A stretch of DNA of 38,364 bases from a virus (Duplodnaviria; Caudoviricetes): positions 1 to 38,364 of IMG/VR virus record IMGVR_UViG_3300019874_000015. One strand, given 5' to 3'. This document shows positions 1,699 to 20,517 of this stretch, one piece after another (within the stretch, counting starts at the first letter, position 1; every line of letters starts with the position of its first letter). The position numbers were made by a program, and so were the translations under genes. The notes beneath the pieces were generated by a model, which was not told where the DNA came from, did not search any database, and worked only from the letters and a program-made list of their open reading frames with translations.

Positions 1699-4398
1699 CT
1701 AGTCTAAGACCCAAAATACGAATGTAATATTTGCTGTAGTTGTGGTCAATCCTGTTCCGTTCATTACTGTTATGTTGAATGTTCCAGCTCCTGGTGTGAC
1801 TGCCTGAATAACCGGTCCAGAACCAGTTGTCGCTCCATACATAGATACCATGATATGTGATCCAGCAGAGACTACTGTATTTGTGATTGTAAATACTTGG
1901 GTAGCTGCTGCAGCGATAGATACACCACTAAATATTACAGATCCATGTCGGTTAGAGCACACTTGTGGTGAAGCTCCGGCAGTTACAACAGTAGGAGTGA
2001 CAAGGATACCTCCAACAAGTGATGCGATATCAGGAACAGTCACACCGCTCGATGATACGGATATACCTCTACCAGTACCTGATGCAGTACTTACTGTGAT
2101 ACCTACAGCAGAGCCAGATGCAAGAGATGCTGTTACTGGACCACTAAGAGCAATAGTTGTAGTTACCTGACCAATCGTCACAGCATGAGCAGCTATTCCA
2201 GTTGCAATGTTGACAGCACCGGCACGTGTTGCACCTGATGCAAGCAAGTTGAATGTCTGTGTACCTGCTGTTCCAGCACCACCCATAATGTTTAGGGTAG
2301 TATTGGCACCAGGTGTTGCGCCGCTAAGGATATTGACAACGTTTGCACCAGTATTGGATGCAGCACTCTGAATTGAGATCGTCTGCCCTGTTGCGTTCGT
2401 TGCTTTCCCAAGAGTGATCACCCCAGTCTGGACAGCAGCACCGAGGGAGATTGTTCCCGTGGTCATTGCATTTCCAAGAGAGATAGACCCAGCAAGTTGG
2501 GTATTTCCTATTGCAATAACGTTAGCTCCAGATCCACCAAGTGTGATATCTGTCTGAGCGGATCCTGTACCTACAGATACGGTTTGAGTTGTACCTGTGG
2601 AGTTACCAGTAAGGATGTTAACTGCATATGTACCGGCAGTACCAACACCTGTCATAAGGTTGAAGGTTTGGTTAGCTGCTGGGGTAGCTCCTGCAAGGAT
2701 GCTCACAACGTTAGGACCAGCAATGCTTGACCCGCTATTGATCAGTACTGTCTGACCTGTTGCGTTTGTCGCTCCGCCAACCGTAATCGTACCTGTCCCT
2801 GCTGTACCTCCTAAAGCAATCGTTCCAGAAGTCAAAGCATTACCAATTGCAATCGACCCAGTTGTCTGAGTATTGCCCACCGTAATGACGTTGGCTGCTG
2901 ATCCCCCAATCGCGATCGTTTTAACACCAGTACCACCAGTACCAATATTTATCGCAACAGCGTTCGTTCCAGTGCCTAGGTTGAATGTCTGAGTTCCGCC
3001 GGATGCGTTACCAGAGAAGATGTTAACGGCATGGGTTCCTGCAGATGCAGCACCTGATAGGATATTTACTGTTGAATTTGCTGCCGTTGCTCCAGCGTTG
3101 ATATTAGTTACGTTGGCTCCGGCAGTTCCCCCACCGATGGAAGTAGTAGATGCACCCGCCCCACCTTGGATGATGACTGTAGAGGCTGCAGATGATGATC
3201 CTACTGTGATGGCTGTGGCACTGTTATGAGCACTTCCCCCGATTAGGATAGTGCCCGTTGTCATTCCTAGACCCATAGTTACGCTGCCAAGGGTCTGGAC
3301 ATTGGCAATTTGCAGGGTTGTTGCACCAGATCCACCAGCAATAATCATCGTGCTAGATCCAGAAGATGAACCAAATGTCATCGTTCCAACCTGTGCTGTA
3401 CCACCTATAGTCATAGTGCCAGAGGTTGTGGAAGCACCAATGGTATAGTTGGAAGTTGCAGCACCATCAAGAGCAAAATGACCAGTACCAACAAGGAGAG
3501 ATATACCTGATGTGCTAGAAACCGAACCTAGGGTAAGTACGTTAGATACTGCACCTGTACCAATATTGACAGCTTTAGCTGAACCAGCCCCGCCGGCAAT
3601 ATTTACAGTCGTTGCACCTGTACCTGCTCCAATGGCTACAATATTTGTCCCGGATGAAGATCCAAGAGTGATCGTCCCTGTTTGGGCTGTACCACCAATA
3701 ACCATTGTACCTGTCGTTGTGGAGGCTCCAACTGCATATGTAGAGGTTGCCGCACCATCTAGAGAAAAATTACCAGTACCGACAAGGAGGGAGATGCCAG
3801 CGGCACCAGCAACACTTCCGATCGTAGTTACAATACCGCTACCGTTGCCAATGGTTGTCGTCCCAGTTGATGTAAGAGCTGTAAATGCACCACCAGCGGG
3901 TGTAGTTCCCCCTTGAGCTGGAGGGGCTGCGAAGACAGCCGCAAGGTTTGAAGGGGTGACGAAAAGGGCGAGAGCACCCGTTGAAGCAGTACCTGCTACA
4001 GCTTCAGCATCCGTCGCTAGCTGACCAATACCTGCTGTTGTCGTTGTGGCGACTGGTGCGCCAGCAATGGCGACAGAGTTGACATAAGTATAAACATCAC
4101 TGGAAAGAGGGACAGATCCATTGACAGTACCTGCAGCAAGTTGTGCATAGGTAGAAAGCTGCACAAGACCTGGAGATGTAGTGGTGGCTAAAGCATTGGA
4201 ACCTAGATTCCAAACGCCTGCACCAGTTGTCTCATAAATTACAGGCGGTGATACTGAGCTATCTTGCCATTGTGTTCCAGGGAGTTTGAAATCGTTTATC
4301 GTTGGAGCGCGATTGGCATTGATGTATTCAGGCGTCTGCTGGAAGGAGATGCCGACATAACCCAGTGGGTTAGAAGAAAGTGACGTATTTGTGCTCAT
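1699..4398 (-). CDS. 899-aa Gly/Thr/Ala/Ser-rich repetitive fibre (beta-solenoid-like) virion protein
   Basis: Nearly charge-free middle region, internal duplications (GISLLVGTG.F.LDGAATS x2; GNTQ..GSI..GNA.T.GTI.LG...ATNATGQT x2), ATTT..G..QL anchor motifs near the N-terminus. Confidence 0.85.
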   Translation of the reverse strand: MSTNTSLSSNPLGYVGISFQQTPEYINANRAPTINDFKLPGTQWQDSSVSPPVIYETTGAGVWNLGSNALATTTSPGLVQLSTYAQLAAGTVNGSVPLSSDVYTYVNSVAIAGAPVATTTTAGIGQLATDAEAVAGTASTGALALFVTPSNLAAVFAAPPAQGGTTPAGGAFTALTSTGTTTIGNGSGIVTTIGSVAGAAGISLLVGTGNFSLDGAATSTYAVGASTTTGTMVIGGTAQTGTITLGSSSGTNIVAIGAGTGATTVNIAGGAGSAKAVNIGTGAVSNVLTLGSVSSTSGISLLVGTGHFALDGAATSNYTIGASTTSGTMTIGGTAQVGTMTFGSSSGSSTMIIAGGSGATTLQIANVQTLGSVTMGLGMTTGTILIGGSAHNSATAITVGSSSAASTVIIQGGAGASTTSIGGGTAGANVTNINAGATAANSTVNILSGAASAGTHAVNIFSGNASGGTQTFNLGTGTNAVAINIGTGGTGVKTIAIGGSAANVITVGNTQTTGSIAIGNALTSGTIALGGTAGTGTITVGGATNATGQTVLINSGSSIAGPNVVSILAGATPAANQTFNLMTGVGTAGTYAVNILTGNSTGTTQTVSVGTGSAQTDITLGGSGANVIAIGNTQLAGSISLGNAMTTGTISLGAAVQTGVITLGKATNATGQTISIQSAASNTGANVVNILSGATPGANTTLNIMGGAGTAGTQTFNLLASGATRAGAVNIATGIAAHAVTIGQVTTTIALSGPVTASLASGSAVGITVSTASGTGRGISVSSSGVTVPDIASLVGGILVTPTVVTAGASPQVCSNRHGSVIFSGVSIAAAATQVFTITNTVVSAGSHIMVSMYGATTGSGPVIQAVTPGAGTFNITVMNGTGLTTTTANITFVFWVLD

Positions 4399-4433
4399 GT
4401 GAATGGCCTACTAATATGATTAGATTCAGGGTT

Positions 4434-4492
4434 CACGATGGCGGATCGTACTTACAGCCGACAGTGGATAGAACGACCATCCATTTACGTTC
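4434..4492 (-). ncRNA. two tandem pseudoknot-motif units in the 5' leader of the 899-aa fibre gene
   Basis: GAACGTAAA-TGGATG-GTCGTTC-TATCCA and GGCTGTAAG-TACGAT-CCGCC-ATCGTG; each loop is complementary to its own 5' segment; same layout as 18181-18257. Confidence 0.65.
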
Positions 4493-4498
4493 AAATTT

Positions 4499-4527
4499 AG
4501 ACTATCAAGCCCTCCTTATTTTTGCAA
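4499..4527 (-). promoter_or_regulatory. sigma70-type promoter for the fibre operon
   Basis: TTGCAA-17 nt-TAGTCT with TGn extension; predicted start falls at the first pseudoknot unit. Confidence 0.55.
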
Positions 4528-6639: not shown

Positions 6640-6668
6640 GCATACTTACCTCCGAAAGATAAAGCATC

Positions 6669-6686: not shown

Positions 6687-7341
6687 ATGCAACTTTTTGG
6701 TATGGAAATCCGGCTTTTTTAATGAATTCGTTCATGGAGGCACCTAGACTTGGCGATTTATGAATCCACCATTTTCCCCACTTGTTTTGGCCTGATGTTT
6801 TGGCTTGTGCTGCGCCTTGGGAAAATAACTTAAATATGGAAGGTGGGACGCCTTCATATTCATAAACAGGGCCTTGGGCTAACCCTTCATTCCCTTGAAA
6901 TTTAACGATTAGACGCTTGTTCCTTGGATCATATTTGAATCCATAGACATTAGAAGAAGTTAAGTCAGCTCTAGGTATTCCTTCTGGAGATGATTCACCA
7001 TGTGGAACGGTTATCTGATGTTCAAGACGATTTATAGCTTGTTGTACCTGAATTGGATTTCTAGCCAATGCATTTAACTCTGGATCTGGAATTGTCTGAA
7101 GATAGCTTTTAAAAACATTCGGATCTCCACCAGCCAGAATCCAAGCTAAATCAGCAGATTTTGGTATAGGAACAGACGTTGGCTCTTCTATGGGGCGTTG
7201 CTGTGATTCTATGCGGTCAGAATATGAATTGAGTATCTGCGTCAATCTCTCTTGGATTTGTGGGGGGATCTGCTGGCCATTTTTGGACATATCGCCTACA
7301 ATGCCAACAATCTTTCTGATCAATTCAATCGCTTCATCCAC
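6685..7341 (-). CDS. KTSC-domain protein in the DNA-ejection cluster
   Basis: SSNVYGFKYDPRNKRLIVKFQ...YEYEGVPPSIFKLF...SLGA.MNEFIK matches the KTSC pattern. Confidence 0.75.
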   Translation of the reverse strand: MDEAIELIRKIVGIVGDMSKNGQQIPPQIQERLTQILNSYSDRIESQQRPIEEPTSVPIPKSADLAWILAGGDPNVFKSYLQTIPDPELNALARNPIQVQQAINRLEHQITVPHGESSPEGIPRADLTSSNVYGFKYDPRNKRLIVKFQGNEGLAQGPVYEYEGVPPSIFKLFSQGAAQAKTSGQNKWGKWWIHKSPSLGASMNEFIKKAGFPYQKVA

Positions 7342-7343
7342 AT

Positions 7344-8078
7344 TTAACCGCCCAAGATTTTCCCAAGTCGATCAATAGATTGGATAAGATTTGAGGTTAA
7401 ATCTCCCGCAGAACCTTGGCTTTCGCCTTCAGATCCACCAAATAACTGACCTACAAGATCTTCAAATGGCTGACCCATGTCACTTTCTATTTTCTTTGTA
7501 ATGGGGCTATACATCTTGTTTTTTTTGACTTGAATAGCTGCATCTTTCATTCCCATACCAGCCTGCACATGCTTGTTGAGAGCCTTCCCAAGTTGAGGAT
7601 ACTGGGAGACAAAAGATTGAAGAGCGTTTGCTGCTTGAGGTGCTTGTGTTGCAGTTGCAACCTCTGCAACCGGAGCTGCAGAGGAACTGGCAGCTTTTGC
7701 TGCATTTTTAACACCTTTCACAGTTTTCTTTGCCACTTCTTCTTTTCCAAAGAACTTTCCAATAGCCCCTGATGCCTTTTTCAATATTGCTGGACCTTTG
7801 GTAACGGCCAACCCAGCTCCTCCTAAACTAAACGCAAGATTTCCAGCACCTTTTGCTATCTCTGCTGGTGTTTGAGATCTTTCTATTTCTTGAAGAGATT
7901 CCTGTTCATCTGGTCTCAAAGTGCCTTTTGACATTCCGGCATTCAGTCGTTCTTTTTCACCCTCAGCTACAGGGTTACTATATAGTCCCTGAAGGAATTG
8001 AATGACCTGATTACTGCCATAACCTGCAGCAGCAGCCTTGGAGAAGAAGTTGGAGAAGTTCTTGTTTACTTTTGCCAT
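7344..8078 (-). CDS. putative internal virion/ejection protein
   Basis: Ala/Lys/Gly-rich helical protein located after the other ejection-like genes. Confidence 0.6.
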   Translation of the reverse strand: MAKVNKNFSNFFSKAAAAGYGSNQVIQFLQGLYSNPVAEGEKERLNAGMSKGTLRPDEQESLQEIERSQTPAEIAKGAGNLAFSLGGAGLAVTKGPAILKKASGAIGKFFGKEEVAKKTVKGVKNAAKAASSSAAPVAEVATATQAPQAANALQSFVSQYPQLGKALNKHVQAGMGMKDAAIQVKKNKMYSPITKKIESDMGQPFEDLVGQLFGGSEGESQGSAGDLTSNLIQSIDRLGKILGG

Positions 8079-9334
8079 TAGATACCTGCCCTATGTCCGC
8101 TGAAGAGAGAAGTATACCAAACATCTGTTAGTGATGGATTTGGTCTGAAAGTATCAAGAAGTTCTGACCCCTGTCTTTCAGTCAACTGAACTCTACCAGC
8201 AGCCTTATCAGCAGCTATCTTCTGAAGAAACGCCTGACCATTTCCACCATTTTCATTGATTGCTAACGCAATCGCTAAAAGGGAATCGTTCTTGTTTAAG
8301 TTTTGTCCAATCTTTTCATAAGATTCCAAAGGCTTCTTCCTTGACGCCTTAACATCTGTCACCATCTCTTTATGATCTGCTGGTGGATAAGCCAACGAGG
8401 CTGCAAATGCAGGCGTCATCCCTACTTTTGTACGAAGATCTTTCTCATAGAGATCAAGACGCCCCATATCTTTATATTGCTGTCTGGCATTTCTGAGCAT
8501 ATCTCTGCCTTTCTCAGGAGACGAACCAAATGCGCTCTTTGCGCCTTCAGTGCTTACTTGCTGTCGTGTTTTGGCGAGTTTTAAAACCTCATCCCCTCTT
8601 TTGACTGCTGCCTGTCTTGGTGACATGCCATTAGCTATATCGTTATCGACTAAAGTTTGATATTCACCTAACATCTCACCTGTCAAATCACGAAAAACCT
8701 GATCACCTGATTTCTGAAGTACTTGTTCAACATGACTTCCTAATTCCTTACGTCCAAGTTCAGCACGACTCTCATAGGCTGTTTCAGCTTGTAATCTCTT
8801 CTCGTCTTGTCTTTGGACGATTTGCTGGGCTTGTGGAAACAATATTCCAGTTTGATCTGATAAATCTGCAGCTTGTCGATCAATATCTTGAGCTGTTGTT
8901 GGCACAAGATAATTAGATGCTGATCGATCAAATTTAGGGGGCTGCACAACATCTTCTGTTCTTTGAACAGGAGGTTGCATAGCCTGATTAGGTTGCCCAG
9001 ATGGTTGAGAAATCGTTTGAGACTGCCCTTGTGGTTGATTGGATGATTGTCCTCCTGGTGGCTGACCTGAACGAGATGCATCCTTCAATTGCTGGCTTTG
9101 CATATATTGCATTGCCTGGTCGGCTATTTGTGGATTCTCAGATACTCCAGGTACACCCATAAGATTAGCATATCTCTTGAGAGGATTTGTCTCTTTTGAT
9201 TCTGCTTGTTCTCTAAGTCCAGAAGATAAACGACCCCGTTCAATTTCTTTGGGTAGCGTCTGGCTTAACCCTTCACCCAACGCCTTTCCAAGGCGACCGA
9301 ATACTGTCCCTCCTTCAGGCAAGATCTGGACCAT
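8078..9334 (-). CDS. putative DNA-ejection (internal virion) protein
   Basis: Gln-rich and helical, N-terminal FGRLGKALGEGLSQ; position matches podovirus ejection genes. Confidence 0.6.
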   Translation of the reverse strand: MVQILPEGGTVFGRLGKALGEGLSQTLPKEIERGRLSSGLREQAESKETNPLKRYANLMGVPGVSENPQIADQAMQYMQSQQLKDASRSGQPPGGQSSNQPQGQSQTISQPSGQPNQAMQPPVQRTEDVVQPPKFDRSASNYLVPTTAQDIDRQAADLSDQTGILFPQAQQIVQRQDEKRLQAETAYESRAELGRKELGSHVEQVLQKSGDQVFRDLTGEMLGEYQTLVDNDIANGMSPRQAAVKRGDEVLKLAKTRQQVSTEGAKSAFGSSPEKGRDMLRNARQQYKDMGRLDLYEKDLRTKVGMTPAFAASLAYPPADHKEMVTDVKASRKKPLESYEKIGQNLNKNDSLLAIALAINENGGNGQAFLQKIAADKAAGRVQLTERQGSELLDTFRPNPSLTDVWYTSLFSGHRAGI

Positions 9335-9343
9335 TTTAACCTC

Positions 9344-9913
9344 TTAACTAGTAGATATTTGTGAATTTGATGGATTCAGCCAGTTCGATAATCCTTTCAC
9401 CCCAGCATTAACACCACCACCAGCATATGCCCCTGCAACCTGACCAGCAGCATTTGCAGCCGTTTCTAGGAAGCCTGGCGATCTAGGGGTATATACGTTC
9501 TCTGAGTATTGATTAAGCGCTGCTTGACCCATAGATGACAGTCTATCAGCAGCTGATGACCTTAGCCCTGATCTAATAGAGGCGAGACGTTCACTTAGGT
9601 CTGTTCCTGCCGATACGGCAGCATTTCTGAACCCACTAGAAGACATCCCGCCAGATCCCATACCAGCAAATTGCTCTCCCAAGTCTGGGATGATCTGCTC
9701 GTTAAATCTTCGCATCTCAGGTGCAGCAAAGTTCTGGAAGTCTTGCGAATTATTGCTTAGGAGGTCGCGATAATAATCTGCACTGTCTCCGAAAGCCCCA
9801 CCAGCTCCCCTTCCTTGTGCAGCATTTGCCTGCTGTTGCTGTATCCGTTGCTGATTAGGTTGCAGCAATGATTTCTGATCGTATTTTGCGTCTGAACCTG
9901 TCCAAAAACTCAT
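9344..9913 (-). CDS. putative DNA transfer/pilot protein (P22 gp7-like position and composition)
   Basis: Gly/Ala/Gln/Ser-rich with FAGMGSGGMSSSG and a C-terminal Gly/Ala segment; ATG at 9913 (MSFWTG) follows SD GAGG. Confidence 0.6.
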   Translation of the reverse strand: MSFWTGSDAKYDQKSLLQPNQQRIQQQQANAAQGRGAGGAFGDSADYYRDLLSNNSQDFQNFAAPEMRRFNEQIIPDLGEQFAGMGSGGMSSSGFRNAAVSAGTDLSERLASIRSGLRSSAADRLSSMGQAALNQYSENVYTPRSPGFLETAANAAGQVAGAYAGGGVNAGVKGLSNWLNPSNSQISTS

Positions 9914-9914
9914 A

Positions 9915-10400
9915 TCAAACCTCAAGTATGTATTCTATAAATGCGAACGCACGATCAAATATCTGAGGGGATGTTACCACTATCTGTGTTTGAGTCATCA
10001 GCACATCATTCCCTGATATATCCCTTGCTGTAAAGGTTGTGGAGTTGGTTCCAGCAACCCATAAATCGATAAGGGTAAAGTTAACATCAAAGGTAATTCC
10101 ATGGTTAACACCCGGGTTGACACCAGCAATCAATGCACCAAGATCTACAACTTTCCTCAATACTGATCTAAACTGCTGGCTGGGATCTTCACCAGTTGTA
10201 TTGACTGCTGAAGGTATAAATTGCTTGCCAGCCAGCAACTCCTCATCAAGGAGCCAACCTATTGCACGTATATTAACAGCATTAGATATCTTCTTGAGAT
10301 GTTCAATGAGAAACTCTCTACCTTCTTCCCATTTCTCTGGGACGGTATCGTATACAGGGACATATGCTTCAAGTTGCTGGGAGACTGGTGGCGTTGTCAT
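9915..10400 (-). CDS. virion structural protein, function unknown
   Basis: ATGA-coupled to the upstream gene in the tail module. Confidence 0.75.
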   Translation of the reverse strand: MTTPPVSQQLEAYVPVYDTVPEKWEEGREFLIEHLKKISNAVNIRAIGWLLDEELLAGKQFIPSAVNTTGEDPSQQFRSVLRKVVDLGALIAGVNPGVNHGITFDVNFTLIDLWVAGTNSTTFTARDISGNDVLMTQTQIVVTSPQIFDRAFAFIEYILEV

Positions 10401-11044
10401 TCAACTCTCAGTAATTGGAATGTCCATCTTATTTGATCCATATTCGCATTTGCTGTTGAGTTTGATATTGTTAATGTATTAAAAACAAATGAAGCTGTAA
10501 ATTGTCCAGTTCCTGGATTTACAATATTTTTGAAACCAAAAGCAGCATTCCAAAAAACCAAAGTATCTACCAAAAAAGGCGGCGTCCTATAATTAGCGGC
10601 CACCAAACGACCCAAAGCAACACTTATTCCAGTAAAATCCAATATGTTTGCAGACGCACCTGCCAATTTAAAATCTAATGGAGCCAATGTCGAACTTAGG
10701 AATGTCACCGGAGTTGGGACAGCATTATTTGGTCCTCTTGAATATTGAAGCAATCCAAGATTGGTGATCGGAAGCCCACCAGCATCTAATGGCTGATACC
10801 CATAGAACACAGGATTAGTGACTGTTACTGGAAGTACTGAAGGAAGTACAGGAGCAATCTCTGGATTGGCATAGAATTCAGGAGTCGTAACGATATTATG
10901 AAATCCATTGTTTGCCGTCAGATTGGAGAACTTGTAATGATTTATGCCAAAGGTGGTGTCTAAGTCTTGATTGTTCGATAACAAATCCCCCTGGCTATCC
11001 TCAAGGAGATCAGTTGGTTGCGGCTTGTTGGGGTTGAATACCAT
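10397..11044 (-). CDS. tail-associated structural protein
   Basis: N-terminal FNPNKPQPTDLLEDSQGDLLSNNQ.LD..FG.NH resembles fibre attachment segments. Confidence 0.65.
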   Translation of the reverse strand: MVFNPNKPQPTDLLEDSQGDLLSNNQDLDTTFGINHYKFSNLTANNGFHNIVTTPEFYANPEIAPVLPSVLPVTVTNPVFYGYQPLDAGGLPITNLGLLQYSRGPNNAVPTPVTFLSSTLAPLDFKLAGASANILDFTGISVALGRLVAANYRTPPFLVDTLVFWNAAFGFKNIVNPGTGQFTASFVFNTLTISNSTANANMDQIRWTFQLLRVE

Positions 11045-11045
11045 T

Positions 11046-13400
11046 TCATATTCCTTGGTTTAACTGTGTGCCAGCTTTTCTCATCCATACCACTTCTGCA
11101 TCAATCTGCACATCTGATTCCTGCTCCACACCATTCATTTGCAATGGGGAGAAGTTCCATTCAATAGTAAGAAATGTTCCCCTAGATGGGCAAAACACTC
11201 TCTGCATGTTCTTTGAGCTTACCAACCCTGCTGGTTGTGTTGTGGGTACAGAGATATTGAAGAAGTTGTCTACGTTTTGAGGTTCGGTATTGATAGGATT
11301 GTCATCACTGTAATTGACGTAAATATTGAGTGATATCGCACCCTGCTCTGTTGTGTTTGTCAGAACGTCGATGTATCCAATCTGTATGTTCTGCCCCTCC
11401 TCAAGGAAGTTAAATTTCTTACTCACGATACTGAAGTTGTCTCGGATGGTGATCTTTCCACCACCTATATAAGTTGCAGATGCAGTCAGTACAGGGTCAG
11501 AGAATTTTTGTGTATTTATATTGTACTTCCAAAGGACAAACTTATTGGGTTGGTCAGGAGTTGCAATCCCATCAAATCCGACACGATACACCCCAGCATG
11601 CGTTACTGGATTGAAATTTAGTGATGAGTATGAACCAATTATCCCAGTTAAGATGATGATCATATTCTCTTCGAGATTATGTTCTGGACTCTCAATAACC
11701 GTTGGCGTGGAACTTGGAGTTGTACCATTGGAGGTAATGTTTTTGATTGAGAGGGTTGGATCGTTTGTCACCTTTGAATCTATATAGACGACATATCCTT
11801 GCTGATTCCCAGCTACAATATCAGGAATGAGAGAAGGACGATTACCCCAAGCAAAGTTAGCTGAGTTCCAAGGAAATTTAGATCCTAGCCATGTTCTAGC
11901 ACTTGATGGTTGGAAAGTGCCAAAACATGTGAAAGAGTCTGTAAATATTGCCCATGATCCATTCTCGTAGTTATAGAGAAGGCGACGATTAGGATAAGTG
12001 ATGGGATAAGTGTTTTCTGGTTGATATGGGTATGTCCAGAATGCTAGGCGATTGATGAAATCTCTTACACCATACACACGTGCTGGTCCTTCATTTTGAT
12101 TATTGAAGGAGAAGACAAGGTCCGGGATTTTTACGTCTATCCTACGAGATTTAAAAGAGTCACATTCCACTATCCCCTTATCACCTATACCAACAAGGGA
12201 GGTGTCAAACTGAACAGCACTGAAAGGACTTTCAGCCCCTAACTCACTGTTCACCTTCTCTATCTGGAAGGGGGCTATTGATCTCCCCGTATATCGTAGT
12301 TGCCAGGTACTGCGCTCACAGTATATGACAAGATTGTCTCGGACAAATCCTACAGATGTGATGTTCTCTGATGTGGGTATATCTAAGAATCCACCCTTTC
12401 CTCGAATGTTATCGTTCCATGCATTTGCACTTACAGTTCCTAAAGGAAAAAGCACGCTTACATCTGATATTGGATTTCCTATTGCTGCCCATCTGATTCT
12501 TTGAGGATAGTTGATTGATGCTGCAAGGTTTGCTCCTTCATATGTGTTAAAAACCATCATCCTTGATCGAAATGGGAGCATGGCTAAACATTGAGTAAGC
12601 CTGTCTCCTGATACACTATTAATGATGGGAGCAAAATCTATCCATGATCCAGCAGGACCATTTGTATATCGAATTGGATCACCAGCAGGACCAGAGAAAT
12701 TTGTTGCCCAAAAAACTTTCTCGTTATTCCCGTTAGGTGGTGGGGGTGTAACCCAATAATTAGTCGTCCAAAAGAAATTGGAATTCGACCCTTTCCATAT
12801 GGTCCCGGGGATAAATTCCTGCCATCCAGTTCCAACGAAACGATAGGCATATACCGTGTCCCATGCGACAGTCATTTCATTGTTCAGGGTATCTATCTCT
12901 CTTATTCTAAGGCCCATCATTGGAAGACGTGGGAAGTAGTTGAAAGAAATGATTGTGGGTGTCCCAGCTGGCGCAGATGTCGTTAGAGTTACCACAGCTG
13001 TGATGTAATTTATTGTCCCGACATTGGCACTAACTGGACTTGTTGCTAGCGTACCATCCCCTTGATCAATCATTACGATATCTGGGCCAGCTTGCAGGGT
13101 TATGATCACACTTCCCGGCTCAATCTCTGCATTGACTTGAGGGACGATTGGAGGAACTAAAGTTGTCCATATGGTATTGATTGTCCATGTGGAAGCACTT
13201 GAATTACCTAAAGAAAGGTTTGCAAATTTTCTCCGCAATCTGCCAAGCGTCTCACATCCTTGCTTTCTTTTTATCCTCTCCCTCCATACATGGGCATTCT
13301 CAAGAGTAGGAAAAGCATCTGCAGGGAGAATGAAGTTTTCCCTGTTCTGGATTAACCCTTGCTCAAATCCTTGGATATATAGAGGAGAGTATCCACCCAT
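11046..13400 (-). CDS. tail hub/nozzle protein (P22 gp10 or T7 gp12-like beta-propeller)
   Basis: 784 aa, beta-rich, RIRWAAIGNP, LVIYCERSTWQL, GAESPFS; follows the adaptor gene. Confidence 0.7.
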   Translation of the reverse strand: MGGYSPLYIQGFEQGLIQNRENFILPADAFPTLENAHVWRERIKRKQGCETLGRLRRKFANLSLGNSSASTWTINTIWTTLVPPIVPQVNAEIEPGSVIITLQAGPDIVMIDQGDGTLATSPVSANVGTINYITAVVTLTTSAPAGTPTIISFNYFPRLPMMGLRIREIDTLNNEMTVAWDTVYAYRFVGTGWQEFIPGTIWKGSNSNFFWTTNYWVTPPPPNGNNEKVFWATNFSGPAGDPIRYTNGPAGSWIDFAPIINSVSGDRLTQCLAMLPFRSRMMVFNTYEGANLAASINYPQRIRWAAIGNPISDVSVLFPLGTVSANAWNDNIRGKGGFLDIPTSENITSVGFVRDNLVIYCERSTWQLRYTGRSIAPFQIEKVNSELGAESPFSAVQFDTSLVGIGDKGIVECDSFKSRRIDVKIPDLVFSFNNQNEGPARVYGVRDFINRLAFWTYPYQPENTYPITYPNRRLLYNYENGSWAIFTDSFTCFGTFQPSSARTWLGSKFPWNSANFAWGNRPSLIPDIVAGNQQGYVVYIDSKVTNDPTLSIKNITSNGTTPSSTPTVIESPEHNLEENMIIILTGIIGSYSSLNFNPVTHAGVYRVGFDGIATPDQPNKFVLWKYNINTQKFSDPVLTASATYIGGGKITIRDNFSIVSKKFNFLEEGQNIQIGYIDVLTNTTEQGAISLNIYVNYSDDNPINTEPQNVDNFFNISVPTTQPAGLVSSKNMQRVFCPSRGTFLTIEWNFSPLQMNGVEQESDVQIDAEVVWMRKAGTQLNQGI

Positions 13401-14471
13401 TTAACACCAACCTGATCCCCAATATCCTTGTCCACCACCTTGATTAGAAGGGGTAGAACCAGAGAATACTGTGCTATTTCTTTGCCCTATCTCCTCTACT
13501 CCCTGTCTTTCCAAGACAAGTGCCTCTTGTTCTTTGAAAAATGGCATCAAGTTCTGTACACCTTCCATATCCTGACGGTCACGTAATATTCGGAGAGAAG
13601 CACCCAGGGCAATATATTCGCTCCATTGATTGAGGATAGGGTTATCTGTCGTTAACATGAACTGAACGGGAGAGAGATAGGTTTCTATTTGAATTTGGTG
13701 TATCTGCTTAGGTACTGGACGAATTGTAAATTCGTTATTCCAAAAAAGGACGGAATATGGCCTACCTGTTGTATATTGAGATACCCGAACACGCAAAGTT
13801 GTTCCTGCCGCTGGGGTAAGGCTGACAGGAACAAAATTGATGGAAAAAGCTCCTGTCACGTAGTTCACTGTTCCTATATTGGTGACAGTGTATAGGCCAG
13901 GATTTCCAGTATTCCTATTGTACATGCCGGGGACAGGTGGTGTGGTCGTTTGAGGAGGGACAGAAACCACTGCATTAGGCACTTGCAGCTGGAGATTTCC
14001 AAGCCCATCATCCGCAATGGATATTGCTGTTCCTGATATGTCAGTTCCACCAATAATTACTGTATTCCTTAAGAAAGGAGTTGGACCAATGTTGAATGCA
14101 AATACTTGCGTTACCCCATCTCCTGATGCTGGCTGAAAAGATGTAGGAAATTTAGGCCACACAGCAAAGAATTGCATCCTGTCTTTAAAAAACGATCCCT
14201 GTATCCCATCGACATAGAGGGGAGATCTCACCCCTTGATTGTAGTTCACATCTAGGGGGTAGGTGTCAATGTAGGGTTCAGTGTAGAAGGTATAGACATC
14301 CCTCATCTGATCAACTTTTATGTTCTGGGGAAAATCAGAATTATAAAATTTATTGACGTATTGCTGGATTGATGCGGAAGTAAGTGATGATTGAGATGGC
14401 GATGCCGTAAGCCTTCTGACTGTTTTCTCTATCTGGGCATATGTGGAGTCGGCTGGGATTACGGCACTCAT
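13401..14471 (-). CDS. head-tail adaptor-like protein with inserted beta domain
   Basis: Helical N-terminus (TYAQIEKTVRRLT), IRPVPKQ.H.I.I..Y and EYIALGASLRIL motifs typical of podovirus adaptors. Confidence 0.65.
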   Translation of the reverse strand: MSAVIPADSTYAQIEKTVRRLTASPSQSSLTSASIQQYVNKFYNSDFPQNIKVDQMRDVYTFYTEPYIDTYPLDVNYNQGVRSPLYVDGIQGSFFKDRMQFFAVWPKFPTSFQPASGDGVTQVFAFNIGPTPFLRNTVIIGGTDISGTAISIADDGLGNLQLQVPNAVVSVPPQTTTPPVPGMYNRNTGNPGLYTVTNIGTVNYVTGAFSINFVPVSLTPAAGTTLRVRVSQYTTGRPYSVLFWNNEFTIRPVPKQIHQIQIETYLSPVQFMLTTDNPILNQWSEYIALGASLRILRDRQDMEGVQNLMPFFKEQEALVLERQGVEEIGQRNSTVFSGSTPSNQGGGQGYWGSGWC

Positions 14472-14478
14472 TGATTAC

Positions 14479-15033
14479 CTACTTGTATTTCCTATGGATT
14501 TTTCCATGACATGGTTTACACACCCATTTTACTTGTAGAGGATAAGCATAATCTTCATGGTGAGCTTCTGTCCTGCATTCCATCATACACATCTCACATT
14601 TAGGATTCCTAACCAGGGTTTCATTTTTCAAATAATAGTGAAAAAGCTTCCTTGAAAGTGTTTTCTCTGGATTTCTTTTGATGCTATTCTTGACGCTTTC
14701 ATGAATTTTATCTTTATTTTTTTCTCTCCACCTTTTTACGGTAGCTTTATAACTTTCAACTCTTTCTTTTGCCCTTTCTCTTGCCTGAACGGTTACTCTA
14801 GCTCTATTTTCTCTGTTCCATCTGTCTCTATATTCTCTATATTTTTCAGGATTTGTTTCTCTTGCTTTTTTTGCTGATTGTCGTGCCAATTCTTTGTATT
14901 TCTCTGGATTTTTAATCCAAAGTTTCTTTCTTTTCGAAGATTTACATTCTTTGCAAAAACCCTCAAACCCATTTCTCTTCCTGAAAAACTCAGTTTCGTT
15001 TTTCTCTACCTTACAAGAAGTGCATGTTTTCAT
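14479..15033 (-). CDS. HNH-type homing endonuclease-like protein with Zn fingers
   Basis: MKTCTSCK..EFF...CKEC, basic helical linker, CEMC...EAHHEDY..PL.V.WVCKPCH...H. Confidence 0.8.
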   Translation of the reverse strand: MKTCTSCKVEKNETEFFRKRNGFEGFCKECKSSKRKKLWIKNPEKYKELARQSAKKARETNPEKYREYRDRWNRENRARVTVQARERAKERVESYKATVKRWREKNKDKIHESVKNSIKRNPEKTLSRKLFHYYLKNETLVRNPKCEMCMMECRTEAHHEDYAYPLQVKWVCKPCHGKIHRKYK

Positions 15034-15036
15034 TTT

Positions 15037-15059
15037 TTCTCCATCTTACACATGGAGAA
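15037..15059 (-). promoter_or_regulatory. SD-sequestering hairpin in front of the HNH gene
   Basis: TTCTCCAT-GTGTAAG-ATGGAGAA, a perfect 8-bp stem containing GGAG, 3 nt before ATG. Confidence 0.65.
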
Positions 15060-15071
15060 CATATACCATAG

Positions 15072-15494
15072 TTACTTCTTTTTGTATATCGGCAAAAATC
15101 GGTGGATTTGCTCTCCTGGTCCATCTTTAAGAGTTGGACGACCATTAGCATCAAGTACTTCGCTTCGTTGGGGGAGTTTCTTTCTTGGGTCATTTACTTC
15201 TTCCATCATCCCAACTGGAATTGAATATGTTTCGCCTGGAATACAATGCCAAGTATCGATCGGATCACCGTCCCAATGGCAATAGGGCTTTGTGAGCCTC
15301 TCATTAGGCCCACGGGAATTGAAATACTCTGCTTCTACGATCTCTGATTCATGGGCGCGCATCTTCTTCATCGCTTCGCGATCTTTCTCTGCGAATCTCT
15401 TGAATCCATTATCAGGTACAGAATTGGCAACACGATTGATTATCCCATGTTTCTCGCCCTTCTTATTCACCAGATCCATCATATTCTCTAGCAT
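15072..15494 (-). CDS. hypothetical protein (head module)
   Basis: ATG at 15494 with SD AAAGGG avoids the long overlap implied by the 15632 start. Confidence 0.75.
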   Translation of the reverse strand: MLENMMDLVNKKGEKHGIINRVANSVPDNGFKRFAEKDREAMKKMRAHESEIVEAEYFNSRGPNERLTKPYCHWDGDPIDTWHCIPGETYSIPVGMMEEVNDPRKKLPQRSEVLDANGRPTLKDGPGEQIHRFLPIYKKK

Positions 15495-15504
15495 GTTTTT
15501 CCCT

Positions 15505-15873
15505 TTAGTTTCCAACGCTACCATCCACTGAATGAAATGGGACATTGGTAAAGTTATAGATGTTGCGAGACCCTGCAGAACAAAGACTTGCAGGTTTCTC
15601 TTTTCCTGCTGATGGTAATACAAAAGCGTCAAATTGGGAAGAATCTATGTTCGTGTAAAAATTTAATCCTACGATATCAAGTATTTTACCTGTAAGACCA
15701 TCCATCTGAAACATCCCATAAGTGAAAGGGACACTGAAATAACAAAGCTGTCCAATTACATATGTATTGGCGATGGAAACTGTCACGACTGCCTTTGGGG
15801 ATTGTGTGATATTGGTTATCAGGAGAAAGGGAGGAGTGACAGGGGAAGGAGGGAGGTAAACATTGTTTGCCAT
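15505..15873 (-). CDS. small beta-barrel virion protein (ITNITQ..A.VT repeat unit)
   Basis: Shares FSVP..GM..M.GLTGKI....T..IDSS.F..F..P with the C-terminal unit of 15910..16929. Confidence 0.7.
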   Translation of the reverse strand: MANNVYLPPSPVTPPFLLITNITQSPKAVVTVSIANTYVIGQLCYFSVPFTYGMFQMDGLTGKILDIVGLNFYTNIDSSQFDAFVLPSAGKEKPASLCSAGSRNIYNFTNVPFHSVDGSVGN

Positions 15874-15909
15874 TGATCTCCTTCCCTTGTGGTTATTTAC
15901 TCTTAATGT

Positions 15910-16929
15910 TTAAGAATAAAACGTTGCTTCCATTTTATATGCTTGGTAAAGAATAACATCCGAAGCTGCACCTGCTGGAGACTGTGCGCCACCAGACAAG
16001 TACATATAGGGAGTAAATTGACCGGTATGGAAAGGTTGCTTTTGGAAGTCATAACCAGTGTAAACCCCGGTTATGATGTTCTGTTGCGTACTAGCACCAG
16101 CAGGAGCAGCTGTTGCAAACAGTGCAGCAGTAGGTGATAGAGTCGTCAACGGAAACGCAAAAGTGGTGAATGCTGATGAATCGATGTCAAAGGTCATCGT
16201 ATAGTTTGCAGCTGATACAGCTACAATTTTACCAGTGAGACCGTTCATTTCAATCATCCCAAATGATGAAGGAACGCTAAATCGCATCTTCATTCCGAGG
16301 GCATAAAAAGGAGTTGGGTCTTGAGAAAACCTTACAACGGCTTGAGTTGCTTTGGTTATCTCAGTGACATAAAGGAATTCAGGATCAACTGCTTCTTGGG
16401 GAGAGAGTCTGCGAGTAAAACCTGCAGTTCCTGCAGTCAAACCAGCCGCCCTTATACCAATGAGAGTATAGCCCGATCCTGATACCGTTGATATCTGAAC
16501 TGCCATACCACCATACTGAAGCATACCTGTCGTATTATAAATACGAACAATATCCCCTTCTGAGTATGTGTTGGTTTGAGACACAACAGCAGGAGATGCA
16601 GCAGTAATTGCAGTGATAGCGTTAGGCGCTTGAGCTTCAACTACCGGCGAAACCTTAACATATGTAAATCCATTGGATGCTGTGGAGGTTCCAAAAGTAT
16701 CCAAATTCAATGCATTTGTGCTGTTCGTTTTCTTCCAACGAAGCCCATCATTTGCTGCTGTCAACCCATTACCAAACCACTCACCCATAACAACAACAGC
16801 TGTAGCTGGAGCCAATGGCATTTGAGTCAGGTTGTAAGTCTTGAAATAATCAGCAGAAGAAGGGAGAGGAATCTTTACCCCTACGCCAGCCGATGTGAAA
16901 GACCCTTGAGTTATTAATGTGAAAGCCAT
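15910..16929 (-). CDS. capsid decoration/stabilising-like protein with two repeated beta domains
   Basis: Directly downstream of the capsid gene; ITAITAASPAVV and VTEITKATQAVV repeats; SD AGGAG. Confidence 0.7.
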   Translation of the reverse strand: MAFTLITQGSFTSAGVGVKIPLPSSADYFKTYNLTQMPLAPATAVVVMGEWFGNGLTAANDGLRWKKTNSTNALNLDTFGTSTASNGFTYVKVSPVVEAQAPNAITAITAASPAVVSQTNTYSEGDIVRIYNTTGMLQYGGMAVQISTVSGSGYTLIGIRAAGLTAGTAGFTRRLSPQEAVDPEFLYVTEITKATQAVVRFSQDPTPFYALGMKMRFSVPSSFGMIEMNGLTGKIVAVSAANYTMTFDIDSSAFTTFAFPLTTLSPTAALFATAAPAGASTQQNIITGVYTGYDFQKQPFHTGQFTPYMYLSGGAQSPAGAASDVILYQAYKMEATFYS

Positions 16930-16939
16930 AAATCACTCC

Positions 16940-18149
16940 TTATAGTCTAGCCGTTACGTTTAGTCCTGAAATCCAGTTCTGGTTCGAAATTGCCCTGGCA
17001 ATTGCGAATTTAGCGTATAGCTGACTGTTCTGTGCAACTGATGAAACCACCCAATCTGGACGGAATCCAATCTTAGCACTGTATTGGTTCTGCTCAATCT
17101 TAGCTGCAGCCTCTAGACCAAACATCGGGATTGTATAAACCGTCTGTCCGCCTGGAGATGAATGACCTGGAATCTTTGCAGCTTTGGAAGAGACAAAGAA
17201 CCGGAATCGAGATACCGAGCAATATTCCTCAGGCCTCAAACCTTCTTGATCTGGGTATGCATTTTTGAGCAATACACCCTGAACGTTTTGAAGGTCAGGT
17301 GTGATGTCAGTAGATGCAAGAGCAAGGAAAGCATCCCTAGTAGGACCGGTTGAGAACTTGTTCTCTGCTTCAATTACTTGCAGCATCGTACGAGCATCAT
17401 TACCTAGGAGAATCCGTTCGATGTTATTAATATCGTTACGAGAGATTTCTGAGGGTTGCTGACCATTCAAACCGCCAACAGCATTGATATAGGACACAGA
17501 TGATGAATAAAGATCACGCATAAGCAGATCTTCTTTTTCACGCAACCACTGACCTAACAAAGCAGTAAACTTAGTTAAAACTTTGTTGTTTTCGAAGAGC
17601 GTACTTCGCTGTTACTTTCAGAGCTTTCAACTCGCTCTTACTGACCATTTCTGGCGGAGGGTCTTGTTAATCCCCTCTCAATGAGTTTCCCCATTGTTCG
17701 GACTATCACTTCACCTTACGGTGTTCTCGGGGTTAGTCTCTGTGGCTGCACTCATATGATGCTTGCCTCTGGTTACCATGCGCTTATGCAGCGTTTAGGC
17801 TTTCCAAGGTATTTACCGAAAATTTATAGCGGGCTACGCGTGTTCCAACCTGCTCATTGATAACTACAGTCTTAGCAAAGATCTCTGTCGTTGCATCGAT
17901 ATCAGTACGTACGACAACTTCTGGTGCTGGATCTACTCCAGAACCATCTAGTTGGCCACCATCTGTGCTTAAACGCTCATATCTACTCATCCTTGTCGTC
18001 TTACCAATATGCGCTTCAGCAAAGTGAAGATCGCAACCAAAGGAATGGATGAGGTTGAACATGGGCGTAGATAATAGGTCTTCAGAAAACTGCAATGGCA
18101 GCTCTGGAGCCATATTGAAAATTGAGGTAATCCCAGTAGAACTGGACAT
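16940..18149 (-). CDS. major capsid protein (N4-gp56-like), spliced: exon 1 18149-17848, exon 2 17603-16940, 321 aa
   Basis: 302+664 nt = 322 codons; the junction reads VINEQV-TLFENNKVLTKFTALLGQWLRE; follows portal and scaffold. Confidence 0.88.
17604..17847 (-). ncRNA. group I self-splicing intron, 244 nt, no ORF
   Basis: P3 TTTTCGG/CCGAGAA, P4 CCTTGG/CCAGAGG, R CAGAGACTA, S GTGATAGTCC, P8 CACC-GTAA-GGTG, P9 CAATGGG-GAAA-CTCATTG, terminal G, P1 with U.G pair, P10 GCGTA/TACGC. Confidence 0.92.
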
Positions 18150-18180
18150 GATACACTCTCGTTTATGTGTTACTAAATCC

Positions 18181-18257
18181 GATAGGAGCGAACCTACCTA
18201 TTCTGCTTCACACTGGCGAGGTGTTTATCTGCCTACGCTTGCGACACGCTATTCAGC
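18181..18257 (-). ncRNA. three tandem pseudoknot-motif units in the capsid mRNA leader
   Basis: GCTGAATA-GCGT-GTCGCAA-GCGT; GCAGATAA-ACAC-CTCGCCA-GTGT; GCAGAATA-GGTAGG-TTCGCT-CCTATC. Confidence 0.7.
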
Positions 18258-18870
18258 TATTTTCGATAGTACGAAATTTTTGGAATATTCGCACCAAAGA
18301 TCTTTTTGTAATTCCTAAAGTTCCTTGAATTTCTTTATTCGCAATTCCTTTTCTTTTCATTTCTAAAGCTTTCAACCTAACTTCTTCTGGATATTTAGGA
18401 ATTCCAGCTAGTACCTTTGTCTTTTCTTCGAAAGATTTCCTTCTAAAAAACTGATAAATTGCCTGGATAGAAGGCCCTAATTTTTCCGATATCTCTCGAT
18501 ATGTACTTCCGTTTTTCCTCATTTTTATAGATTCTTCTACGATTTCAGGAGAATATTTCATTGCTCCTTTGAAATTCTGTCTTCTTTTGATAACCATATC
18601 ATTTGTATTATCTTTTGCGGTCCCCAAAAAAAGATGCTCAACTCTCATACATCTAGGATTATCACATTTATGAAGTACCCATAAACCTTCAGGTATTTCT
18701 CCATTATGAGATATCCAATTTGCCCTATGCGCACCAATCATTTTTCTTCGAAACTTTAAAATTGGATAACCATGACCAATTTTGGGTTTATAAGTCGACT
18801 CAAGGCATTCCCCGTTCCACTTACTTCTTGCTAATAGGCGTGCTTTTAATTTTTCGTATTCGGCAGACAT
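18253..18870 (-). CDS. free-standing HNH homing endonuclease with two C-terminal HTH-like repeats
   Basis: AHRANWISHNGEIPEGLWVLHKCDNPRCMRVEHLFLGTAKDNTNDM. Confidence 0.92.
   Translation of the reverse strand: MSAEYEKLKARLLARSKWNGECLESTYKPKIGHGYPILKFRRKMIGAHRANWISHNGEIPEGLWVLHKCDNPRCMRVEHLFLGTAKDNTNDMVIKRRQNFKGAMKYSPEIVEESIKMRKNGSTYREISEKLGPSIQAIYQFFRRKSFEEKTKVLAGIPKYPEEVRLKALEMKRKGIANKEIQGTLGITKRSLVRIFQKFRTIENS
18266..18294 (-). promoter_or_regulatory. possible capsid promoter embedded in the HNH 3' end
   Basis: GTGCGA-17 nt-TACTAT; predicted start falls just before the first pseudoknot unit; -35 is weak. Confidence 0.4.
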
Positions 18871-18898
18871 ACAACTCCCCAGTTGATCCTATGAAAAA

Positions 18899-18948
18899 AA
18901 TATGTCAGGCCGTAGGTAGCGGCTTTTCGGATGCCTCCTAGACATATT
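18899..18948 (-). ncRNA. three-way-junction RNA in the HNH leader
   Basis: AATATGTC/GACATATT closing stem, GGA-GGCA-TCC GNRA hairpin, GAAAA linker, GCCG-CTACCTA-CGGC hairpin. Confidence 0.55.
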
Positions 18949-18954
18949 GAGAGT

Positions 18955-18983
18955 ACTATATCATGTTCTTGTATTTTATGTAA
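18955..18983 (-). promoter_or_regulatory. sigma70-type promoter for the HNH gene
   Basis: TTACAT-17 nt-TATAGT with TGn extension. Confidence 0.55.
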
Positions 18984-18996
18984 GTAACTAAGCCTC

Positions 18997-19752
18997 TTAC
19001 TCTAAGCCCTTCATGCGTCTGTTCATTCGCTGCCAATTATCTCTTTTTCTCTCTTCACTCAGTGCCATGATAGGAGATGCATCACCTGTTTGGGCTAGCC
19101 CCGACGATATGGATTGCGGTTTGTTGAGATTTCGTTCAGCCTTTGCCGCATCCTTTGATGCGTTCGTGTTAGGTATATAACGTTTCATCGCGTTATATAC
19201 CTTTGACCACTTCTCAAGAGAGTCAGGCATTACTTTAAGGGCTTCAAATGCTTCTGGATGATGGTATTCGAGATAGTCTACGTTCTCTTGCGAGCAGACT
19301 TTATCGAAGTCCGGGAAAGTTTGTCTGATTTTGATAGGAGCTTCTTTCGTCTCTTTTTCTTTCCTTTCGGCATCTCTTTGAGCTTCGCGTCTTCCAATAG
19401 CATCATCGACTCTTCGTTGAATCTCGTCTTCTTCCGTCTCTTCTTCCTTCTCTTTAGAGGGGGTGTTTCGGTTGATAACAGCATCGAGTGCTTTTTTGAG
19501 AGCTTCTGCTTCCGCTTCTTTCTCTTTGGCTTTTCTGTCGCTCTCTTCTTTCTCTTTCCTCTCTTTATCTCTGACTTCTCTAAACTTTCTCCAGTTGATT
19601 TGCTCTTGCGTCTCCTGCGTCTCTTTGTTTTCTTGTGGGGAGGAAGATTTGGTGGAAGAAACGACTTCAGGCTTTTTCTCATTTGACGCTACAGGTTGTG
19701 TTGTTTCTGGTTTTTTTACTTCTTCACTGATAGGATTTGGTTTCGCGGTCAT
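18997..19752 (-). CDS. capsid scaffolding protein
   Basis: Highly charged coiled coil between portal and capsid genes; FPDFDKV motif; basic C-terminal helix. Confidence 0.75.
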   Translation of the reverse strand: MTAKPNPISEEVKKPETTQPVASNEKKPEVVSSTKSSSPQENKETQETQEQINWRKFREVRDKERKEKEESDRKAKEKEAEAEALKKALDAVINRNTPSKEKEEETEEDEIQRRVDDAIGRREAQRDAERKEKETKEAPIKIRQTFPDFDKVCSQENVDYLEYHHPEAFEALKVMPDSLEKWSKVYNAMKRYIPNTNASKDAAKAERNLNKPQSISSGLAQTGDASPIMALSEERKRDNWQRMNRRMKGLE

Positions 19753-19770
19753 TTTACCTCTATCTTACTT

Positions 19771-20046
19771 ATGGATGATACTTTAGATTCCCCACATGTT
19801 GCCAAAATCGATGAATATAAAAAAGATTTAGCTCATTATAGGAATGTTTTGCAATATCTTGGTGCAAATGTACCCATAGAATGCCTATGCCTACCTAAAG
19901 TCATTGAGACTGTATTGGTGAGGGAAGGCTGCTTGCGTGTTTATGACTTGATTAACCGTGATCTTAGAAAAATCAAAGGGCTTGGTAAAGGAAGAATCGA
20001 TCTCCTTGCATCCCGATTGGATGAGTTTTTCTCGATTAGCAGCTAG
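19771..20046 (+). CDS. RNA polymerase alpha-CTD-like helix-hairpin-helix protein (91 aa), antisense within the head module
   Basis: PIECLCLPKVIETVLVREGCLRVYDLINRDLRKIKGLGKGRIDLLASRL aligns by eye with the alpha-CTD pattern; no clear SD. Confidence 0.6.
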   Translation: MDDTLDSPHVAKIDEYKKDLAHYRNVLQYLGANVPIECLCLPKVIETVLVREGCLRVYDLINRDLRKIKGLGKGRIDLLASRLDEFFSISS

Positions 20047-20517
20047 ATACTCTGATTCCGATTGAAGAGATATGTCATGCTCTTCACGAATGTCATGATG
20101 AAACGTCCCATTGAAGAATGAATCACTCCATCTCTTGGTCCTTTCCCAAATTGGAGATACGTTGGACATCTCTGATACGACAGCCATTACATCTGGCCCG
20201 GGGAGTGTCCAAAGAAGACGAATCATGTCTGATCTCTTCTCAAAGAGAAAGCACATCTGATTTGGGCGAGGATTGGGAAGATAAGGCCACGCGTAGAATT
20301 TACGTCTCTTAACCCCTTTGATTAGGCAGTCAGTAGCCGTAACACAAACAACACAAAACTCGGGTTCATCAATTGTGTCATGATGGATGTTAATGCATTG
20401 CCATACTTGGTCAAGGATATCATTGCATAGAGCCTCACCCAACTCATACGGATCATGTCTTGTGTTATCCTGACGAGCTTTCAGTGCTTGAGCACCTACT
20501 GTAAGTCTATCTCCCAT
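19891..20517 (-). CDS. hypothetical protein (head module)
   Basis: 208-aa ORF, TAATG-coupled to the upstream gene. Confidence 0.8.
   Translation of the reverse strand: MGDRLTVGAQALKARQDNTRHDPYELGEALCNDILDQVWQCINIHHDTIDEPEFCVVCVTATDCLIKGVKRRKFYAWPYLPNPRPNQMCFLFEKRSDMIRLLWTLPGPDVMAVVSEMSNVSPIWERTKRWSDSFFNGTFHHDIREEHDISLQSESEYLAANREKLIQSGCKEIDSSFTKPFDFSKITVNQVINTQAAFPHQYSLNDFR

Follow-up and report, generated by a model that had tools for sequence, protein, structure and literature searches.

We find that two tandem arrays of compact predicted pseudoknots, located in front of major virion genes of a phage, belong to a conserved leader RNA. We propose that it may act as a translational ON switch for these genes, with the knots held in their folded state by a protein, a reading to which we assign a probability of about 0.5. 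A two-state architecture of the leader, considered on its own, is likely. That the arrays would work as an ON switch is suggested because the strand of one knot can instead pair over the ribosome-binding site (RBS). The window, by which we mean the whole stretch of DNA that was analysed, is a 38,364-bp phage record whose virion genes lie on the minus strand. One array is found in the leader of the major capsid gene, the other one upstream of a putative tail-fibre gene (Table 1). Both are genuine, since a scan of the whole window with a descriptor of the unit recovers these two arrays and no others.

Table 1. Positions of the two arrays, their predicted promoters and the associated genes in the window.
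Feature	Position	Strand	Remark
-35-like hexamer, capsid promoter, weak	18288..18293	-	predicted; 16-bp spacer
-10-like hexamer TACTAT, capsid promoter	18266..18271	-	predicted; within last HNH codons
Capsid-array unit 1	18235..18258	-	3/4 knot pairs, weakest stem; starts at predicted +1
Capsid-array unit 2, predicted switch unit	18210..18233	-	
Capsid-array unit 3	18181..18207	-	
Capsid ribosome-binding region and ATG (18149)	18144..18161	-	
N4-gp56-type major capsid gene, split by inferred intron	16940..18149	-	
-35-like hexamer TTGCAA, second promoter	4522..4527	-	predicted; 17-bp spacer
-10-like hexamer TAGTCT, second promoter	4499..4504	-	predicted
Second array, unit 1, unbulged form	4465..4492	-	
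Second array, unit 2	4434..4459	-	loop and 3' strand pair with start-codon region in knot-free fold
Ribosome-binding region and ATG (4398) of putative tail-fibre gene	4396..4410	-	
Putative tail-fibre gene, 899 aa	1699..4398	-	
Conserved 208-aa protein	19891..20517	-	candidate reader by co-occurrence

A preliminary description of this DNA, made from its letters, had reported three back-to-back units in the capsid leader, starting at position 18257. The three units of about 25 nt are indeed present, and their stems (GCGT/GCGT, ACAC/GTGT and GGTAGG/CCTATC) could be verified. The start, however, misses the first A, and the array spans 18258-18181 on the minus strand. Unit 1 has the weakest stem, as had been stated. 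In its knot an A is opposite an A at the missing pair, a mismatch that in relatives recurs in nine first units and ten later units. The notion that both arrays precede major virion genes holds for the capsid gene, which is of the N4-gp56 type, whereas for the second gene the assignment is indirect: its 899-aa product is rich in Gly, Thr and Ala and did not match any family, and it is its composition and position that point to a tail fibre. Capsid exon 2 matches TIGR04387 (N4-gp56) below the cutoff because the gene is split; the capsid of one relative scores above the cutoff. The intron in question (17847-17604, minus strand) is ORF-less and gave no match in Rfam. Its boundaries were deduced from an intronless relative, and from its features we take it to be group I-like.

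Each unit opens with a 4-nt 5' segment, followed by an AU-rich linker whose first letters are usually Y-A or A. Next comes a stem, mostly 4-6 bp long, that carries a 7-nt loop of the form Y-U-N-R-Y-N-A; positions 3-6 of this loop pair with the 5' segment. This segment is bulged after its third base in most clade-1 units and unbulged in most clade-2 units. To look at relatives, we used 80 loci with the window's capsid exon and 80 loci with a more distant capsid, and 132 capsid leaders were kept once duplicates and short leaders had been taken out. At least one unit was called in 120 of the 132 leaders and at least two in 99, giving 293 units in total with none in the remaining 12 leaders, all by a descriptor that demands pairing. 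The knot was therefore also analysed with units that were anchored without its first two pairs. Of 294 distinct units, 214 have one of these as a Watson-Crick pair and 240 the other, compared to 112±7 and 136±7 in shuffled sequences, and crossed controls are at or below chance. Moreover, in 186 of 273 cases both pairs match the loop of the unit itself, versus only 73 of 528 for the loop of another unit of the same leader. By sequence comparison the pairs of both hairpin and knot covary across relatives, which supports the earlier claim that the loop tracks the 5' segment. The units, which were selected for pairing, show 22 distinct perfectly paired 4-bp knot combinations, the fourth pair included. 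In the selected alignment each of the four knot pairs and of the six stem columns shows two-sided changes, which owing to the selection is supportive only.

When the loop letters were left unconstrained, 218 units were found in 133 leaders; five shuffled sets gave 15-30 each, and the reverse strand 54. In these 218 units loop position 2 is a U in 197 and position 4 a purine in 195, and a conserved unpaired A is present in 154. The resulting Y-U-N-R loop presumably resembles a U-turn or an anticodon loop. Apart from this, the standard unit has few invariant bases and all four knot pairs vary. From these patterns we predict that the unit is a compact tandem pseudoknot in which both stems coexist in one fold. 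Its geometry is atypical, with a first loop of about 3-6 nt and a last loop of 0-2 nt, and because of the latter the predicted three-dimensional fold is tentative. We rejected a classical wiring in which a loop would be paired by the 5' segment of the unit that follows it (33 of 173, versus 259 of 293 for pairing within the unit, the latter being partly selected). A leader contains 1 to 8 units; in the one leader with eight, seven are almost identical, which suggests growth via tandem duplication. We also derived a covariance model from other phages, using 68 of their units, all unbulged. Its best match in the window is at 4492-4465 (E 0.0014), but it does not match the bulged capsid units of the window at E<=5. 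This model is insensitive to bulged units and matches 24 of 44 genomes.

One of the units is predicted to double as an anti-Shine-Dalgarno strand, a feature that was absent from the preliminary description. In the knot-free fold of the window's capsid leader the 5' half of unit 2 (18233-18217) covers both Shine-Dalgarno (SD) motif and AUG with 15 bp, and opening the RBS costs about 9 kcal/mol, knot energy excluded. Likewise, in the knot-free fold of the second array the last unit buries the SD and AUG of the putative tail-fibre gene. All folds were calculated with ViennaRNA, which has no pseudoknot energy; the ON/OFF balance lies outside these figures. For the relatives we compared the pairing of a unit with its own RBS and with the RBSs of other genomes, using 82 of the 99 multi-unit leaders (17 were dropped because a start codon that could be used was lacking or the spacing fell outside 18-60 nt). 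Pairing between the penultimate unit and the RBS of the same genome amounts to -13.3 kcal/mol in clade 1 (n=44), versus -10.0 kcal/mol across genomes (0/5000 permutations), and the strand involved is the 5' half plus loop of that unit. The signal of the last unit is weak (52/5000), and neither the third-from-last unit (4678/5000) nor a coding control gave one.

Clade 2 (n=38) is wired differently. Whole units showed no own-versus-cross signal (2885-3061 of 5000), and a first test on positions -16 to +3 did not differ from the control. The 3' strand of the last unit plus 9 nt, however, pairs with positions -26 to -6 at -6.66 own versus -4.23 cross (0/5000, n=34), a range that was picked after inspection of the sequences. 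The stem strand of the last unit accounts for no more than about 2 of the RBS pairs, and the signal is in part that of a mere downstream hairpin. CTT, the complement of the AAG of the SD, is found in 29 of 38 last units of clade 2 but in 19 of 71 others. Unit bases contribute at least three expected RBS pairs in 41/44 clade-1 and 29/38 clade-2 leaders. Moreover, the median cost of opening the RBS is 12.6 kcal/mol in clade 1 and 8.6 kcal/mol in clade 2, compared to 5.1 kcal/mol for 193 other genes. Tail-fibre leaders show a modest own-versus-cross signal (167/10000, n=9), and a G-U versus A-C test of strand was weak (7 versus 3).

A third arrangement is found in a subclade in which the standard first unit is kept and the switch unit is replaced by a classical H-type knot of 25 nt. 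This alternative knot is almost invariant in eight capsid loci whose leaders are otherwise divergent, and it was matched in 25 IMG/VR stretches. Its stem strand pairs with the RBS at -9.15 own versus -7.56 cross (0/10000), and the two loop positions that vary change in step with the bases ahead of the SD in 24 of 25 loci (0/10000). Three out of four genomes with the alternative knot have standard units in the tail-fibre leader, while the fourth has no array there; single genomes can thus use both folds, the alternative one at the capsid and the standard one at the tail fibre. The alternative knot is the best riboswitch-like candidate of the set. Within the N4-gp56 family, sequence comparison shows a competing helix between a unit and the SD/start region to be conserved in three different wirings.

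We also searched beyond capsid leaders. In 20 whole genomes, 19 multi-unit rows were detected, versus 2 in a resampled null; 13 are capsid leaders, 1 is an overlap duplicate, 2 are tail-fibre leaders and 3 are others. Five further rows consist of a single unit and include two more tail-fibre leaders. Tail-fibre loci that were fetched separately carry arrays in 6/9 cases and none in 3/9, and a descriptor scan of the 2.04 Mb flanking 80 loci found no arrays outside capsid leaders. Pattern scans that are independent of the gene mostly yield chance matches. In 120 loci, 11 passed the two-stem filter, 9 of them capsid leaders; in 102 loci, 17 passed, namely 14 N4-gp56-type leaders, 2 sites before another capsid and 1 intragenic (coding) site; and in 124 loci, 9 passed.

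Units are also present ahead of the PHROG 14242 capsid, in phages of 53-60% GC. By BLASTP this capsid has no similarity to the N4-gp56 capsid. Two or three units occur in 10 of 21 distinct leaders of this family. Own-versus-cross pairing with the RBS was negative (5992 and 3894 of 10000, n=10, with start sites unrefined), and in 4 of 11 arrays the last stem strand forms a perfect 8-bp helix with the bases leading into the SD. In one locus of the family a three-unit array (locus positions 31-120) is followed by a small HNH-like ORF inserted before the capsid gene. Elsewhere, three unit-like repeats (locus positions 786-880) lie within the first codons of a scaffold-like ORF and may represent either an array in frame or a repeat of the encoded protein, and at least five unit-like tandem repeats with weak stems are found at a contig end (locus positions about 440-571).

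How might such a leader work? The mini-knots would fold while the message is made and, once folded, would lock away the strand that otherwise covers the RBS, leaving the ribosome site free. In doing so the 5' segment would cap the Y-U-N-R loop, which otherwise may seed the pairing with the RBS. A leader that lacks a stabiliser would relax to the OFF state, by about 9 kcal/mol in the window if knot energy is excluded, and a bound protein would likely keep the knots folded. Units that do not switch could add avidity, and unit 1 could in addition shield the 5' end. The knots would likely serve as a gate on the output of capsid and tail fibre, whose promoters are of the ordinary sigma-70 type. Among the functions that had been guessed for the arrays, binding sites for a translational activator fit best.

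As the holder of the knots we slightly prefer the host 30S subunit or its protein S1 to a late protein of the phage, given that these units recur in an unrelated phage family and that two knot folds are mixed within single genomes. In the tisB mRNA, whose RBS is sequestered, S1/30S standby requires a 5' pseudoknot, and H-type knots are bound by S1 (PMC7708055). Unfolding of pseudoknots by S1 has been reported as well (PMC7038950), and in timP a simple release of the SD has been ruled out (PMC11295053). Simple tandem motifs, such as the pan motif, have been interpreted as protein sites (PMC2864571). A phage-encoded candidate, by co-occurrence only, is a 208-aa protein that is present in 20/20 genomes, has 380 homologues with invariant R-x-K and P-x-P-R-P, and is one conserved phage gene that lacks an evident virion role. 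Its structure model is confident and does not resemble a known fold. The protein has no convincing Pfam family, no PHROG, no PDB match by sequence or fold (best Z 3.4) and no usable Atlas match; it is matched by uncharacterised phage models only. The KTSC protein, which had been suggested as a reader, is present in 9/10 genomes of one set and 0/10 of the other, which makes it unlikely to be a common reader.

The same two-state fold might also do without any trans factor, if the knots were a co-transcriptional kinetic trap that gives a limited time for translation of the nascent RNA before the leader refolds to OFF. All of the covariation and RBS-helix evidence would fit, as would the fact that two different knot folds serve within one genome, and the leader of the MS2 maturation gene is a precedent for a transient translatable fold that precedes a stable OFF fold, even though it is a cloverleaf of an RNA phage and has no repeated knots (PMC6733600). 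Such a trap, however, explains neither why up to eight units are present when one alone bears the anti-SD strand, nor why the alternative knot is nearly invariant across divergent leaders, and we consider it unlikely.

The invariance of the alternative knot would rather be expected of a new riboswitch class, in which the knots are stabilised by a small ligand or an ion and the ribosome site thereby becomes accessible. This idea, too, has its merits: the leader has the architecture of an expression platform, with fold and RBS helix mutually exclusive in silico (the test being negative in the PHROG 14242 family), the unpaired loop positions are conserved as described above, and the units are spread across unrelated phages. 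Against it speak the scarcity of invariant bases in the standard unit and the variation of all four of its knot pairs, the structural rather than metabolic nature of the downstream genes, and the lack of a match to any Rfam riboswitch, so that we find it distinctly doubtful. A more daring version, for which we see some but clearly less than an even chance, is that unrelated tailed phages share a modular sensor: arrays of mini-knots with a loop like that of an anticodon would cooperatively read a host-wide signal (a metabolite, an ion or the state of the ribosome) and license capsid and tail-fibre synthesis, as a new riboswitch-like class by which the assembly of virions is gated.

The protein-held switch would operate on messages from simple promoters. 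Both arrays had been described as starting just past -10 boxes, and we confirm that -10-like hexamers (18271-18266 and 4504-4499) lie 7 nt before the respective first unit. In the relatives, TAnnnT is found at -12 of 46/120 first units, versus 1/173 later units. It is present at -13 to -11 of the first unit in 69/120 leaders, 66 of which have a T, for which they were not selected, at the -35 position with a 17-bp spacer. These statistics place the start of the first unit at the +1 predicted for a promoter of the sigma-70 type. A paired 5' end followed by a series of barriers to 5' exonucleases or to scanning by RNase E might chiefly stabilise the message, and H-type pseudoknots do hinder RNase E scanning in proportion to their size, but the units, with 8-9 bp, correspond to the smallest knot tested, which was also the least effective (PMC9943677). 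Moreover, stabilisation does not predict a covarying RBS helix, and in the PHROG 14242 family 0/11 arrays have a -10 box while 9/11 start at most 36 nt past the upstream stop codon. A 5'-terminal position is thus probably dispensable. Protection from decay, as had been proposed for the 5'-end knots, alone fails to account for either the helix or the stop codon-adjacent arrays; it is improbable as the main function and may be a side benefit. Finally, a put- or nut-like nascent RNA signal that renders RNA polymerase resistant to termination in the late operons would suit the promoter-proximal placement at two late promoters, but it found no positive evidence and is very improbable: terminator-like sites in 1-20000 are near chance (20 versus 15.4±4.3), the RBS helix is left unexplained, and the unit does not have the anatomy of the HK022 putRNA, an about 73-nt V-shaped RNA with two stems and a triplex for which the available passages of PMC9378689 do not mention a pseudoknot.

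We then compared the units with known systems. The units of the window, the 161-nt region alone and 20 related loci did not match any family of Rfam (Rfam 15), in line with the novelty claimed in the preliminary description, and neither did the 16 loci with the alternative knot. preQ1-I and SAM-II have a compact H-type topology that is coupled to access to the SD, which usually lies inside the knot in the OFF state. In the phage leaders, in contrast, the knot is predicted to free the SD, the genes are structural, and there is no Rfam match. The Com protein of phage Mu activates translation of the mom mRNA, whose RBS is buried in structure. In AbiD1/Orf1 a phage protein likewise turns on an mRNA with a buried RBS (PMC2661086). 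The targets of both systems are hairpins and not knot arrays. A similar logic is seen in the +42 mRNA of tisB, which also combines a 5'-end H-type knot with a sequestered RBS and in which the knot favours translation (PMC7708055; commentary PMC11295053). Its features that recur here are the 5'-end knot at the predicted +1, seen in the N4-gp56 family but absent in the PHROG 14242 family, and the computed sequestration of the RBS. In tisB, however, a single knot, apart from the RBS helix, resides on a processed toxin mRNA (PMC7708055), whereas the phage arrays are modular, with 1-8 units, belong to primary late transcripts and include a unit whose fold and the RBS helix exclude each other.

STAXI (RF01728) is likewise a simple pseudoknot that is repeated two or three times, but it has UUCG tetraloops, is found near DNA-manipulation genes in Enterobacteriales and, in the passages available, is not described as cis-regulatory (PMC2864571). 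The phage units, in contrast, are about 25 nt long, have a Y-U-N-R loop and lie ahead of virion genes. The STAXI covariance model did not match them, and instead of the STAXI gene context (Ssb, topoisomerase, antirestriction, integrase) capsid and putative tail-fibre genes follow the arrays. A catalogue from 2023 lists two computational RNAs at most 25 bp upstream of capsid_maj_N4 genes, DNAVirus_3698 (37/180 sequences) and DNAVirus_865 (4/139) (PMC10690425). Compared by description only, the former has 85 nt, is half marine and has 2 covarying bases, and the latter looks coding (PMC10690425). An overlap of our units with either RNA, and hence an earlier computational detection, is possible. 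The available main text of the catalogue does not describe a tandem knot, and four short unit motifs are absent from the readable text of its supplement, a comparison to which its alignments were external (PMC10690425). The literature searched, whose coverage excluded most subscription journals, the supplement of PMC5737381 and the alignments of PMC10690425, holds no description of the units. They are a real and apparently undescribed regulatory RNA family that is akin to pseudoknot-gated translation leaders.

Tailed phages usually control their late genes through transcription. The large group of uncultured phages described here, in contrast, appears to rely on plain sigma-70-type promoters, while a repeatable RNA module of 25 nt gates the main virion proteins at the level of translation. 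Translation-activating pseudoknots at initiation have been described as rare (PMC11295053). The units are also a resource, consisting of about 300 natural variants with compensatory changes, three independent RBS wirings, 1 to 8 copies and a second, unrelated capsid family, which makes fold, cooperativity and trigger testable with short synthetic RNAs and reporters. Synthetic biology could also obtain from them an ON switch that is tunable and very small.

A GTDB scan did not reveal the host: it returned five close matches in MAGs of unrelated phyla, an archaeon among them, and one weak match, and these matches are probably misbinned phage contigs. Among cultured phages the matches to capsid and portal are only distant, below about 33%. 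Chlamydiae as a possible host found no support in the literature searched. Upstream of the capsid array the window encodes a free-standing HNH gene (18870-18253, minus strand) with its own promoter-like site and, in its leader, an int-alpA RNA (RF02996, above the gathering score, 18948-18887, minus strand). The -10 box of the capsid promoter lies within the last codons of this gene, and its stop codon is inside unit 1. An HNH-like gene is present at most 900 nt upstream in 5/74 clade-1 loci. An imperfect 17-nt palindrome, which is possibly a protein operator, is common to eight loci upstream of the capsid gene, where it lies near or inside the leaders but outside the units. Finally, two tRNA genes with the anticodons GUU and CAU (5193-5122 and 5115-5041, minus strand) have an endonuclease gene on one side and, on the other, the gene that lies upstream of the second array.
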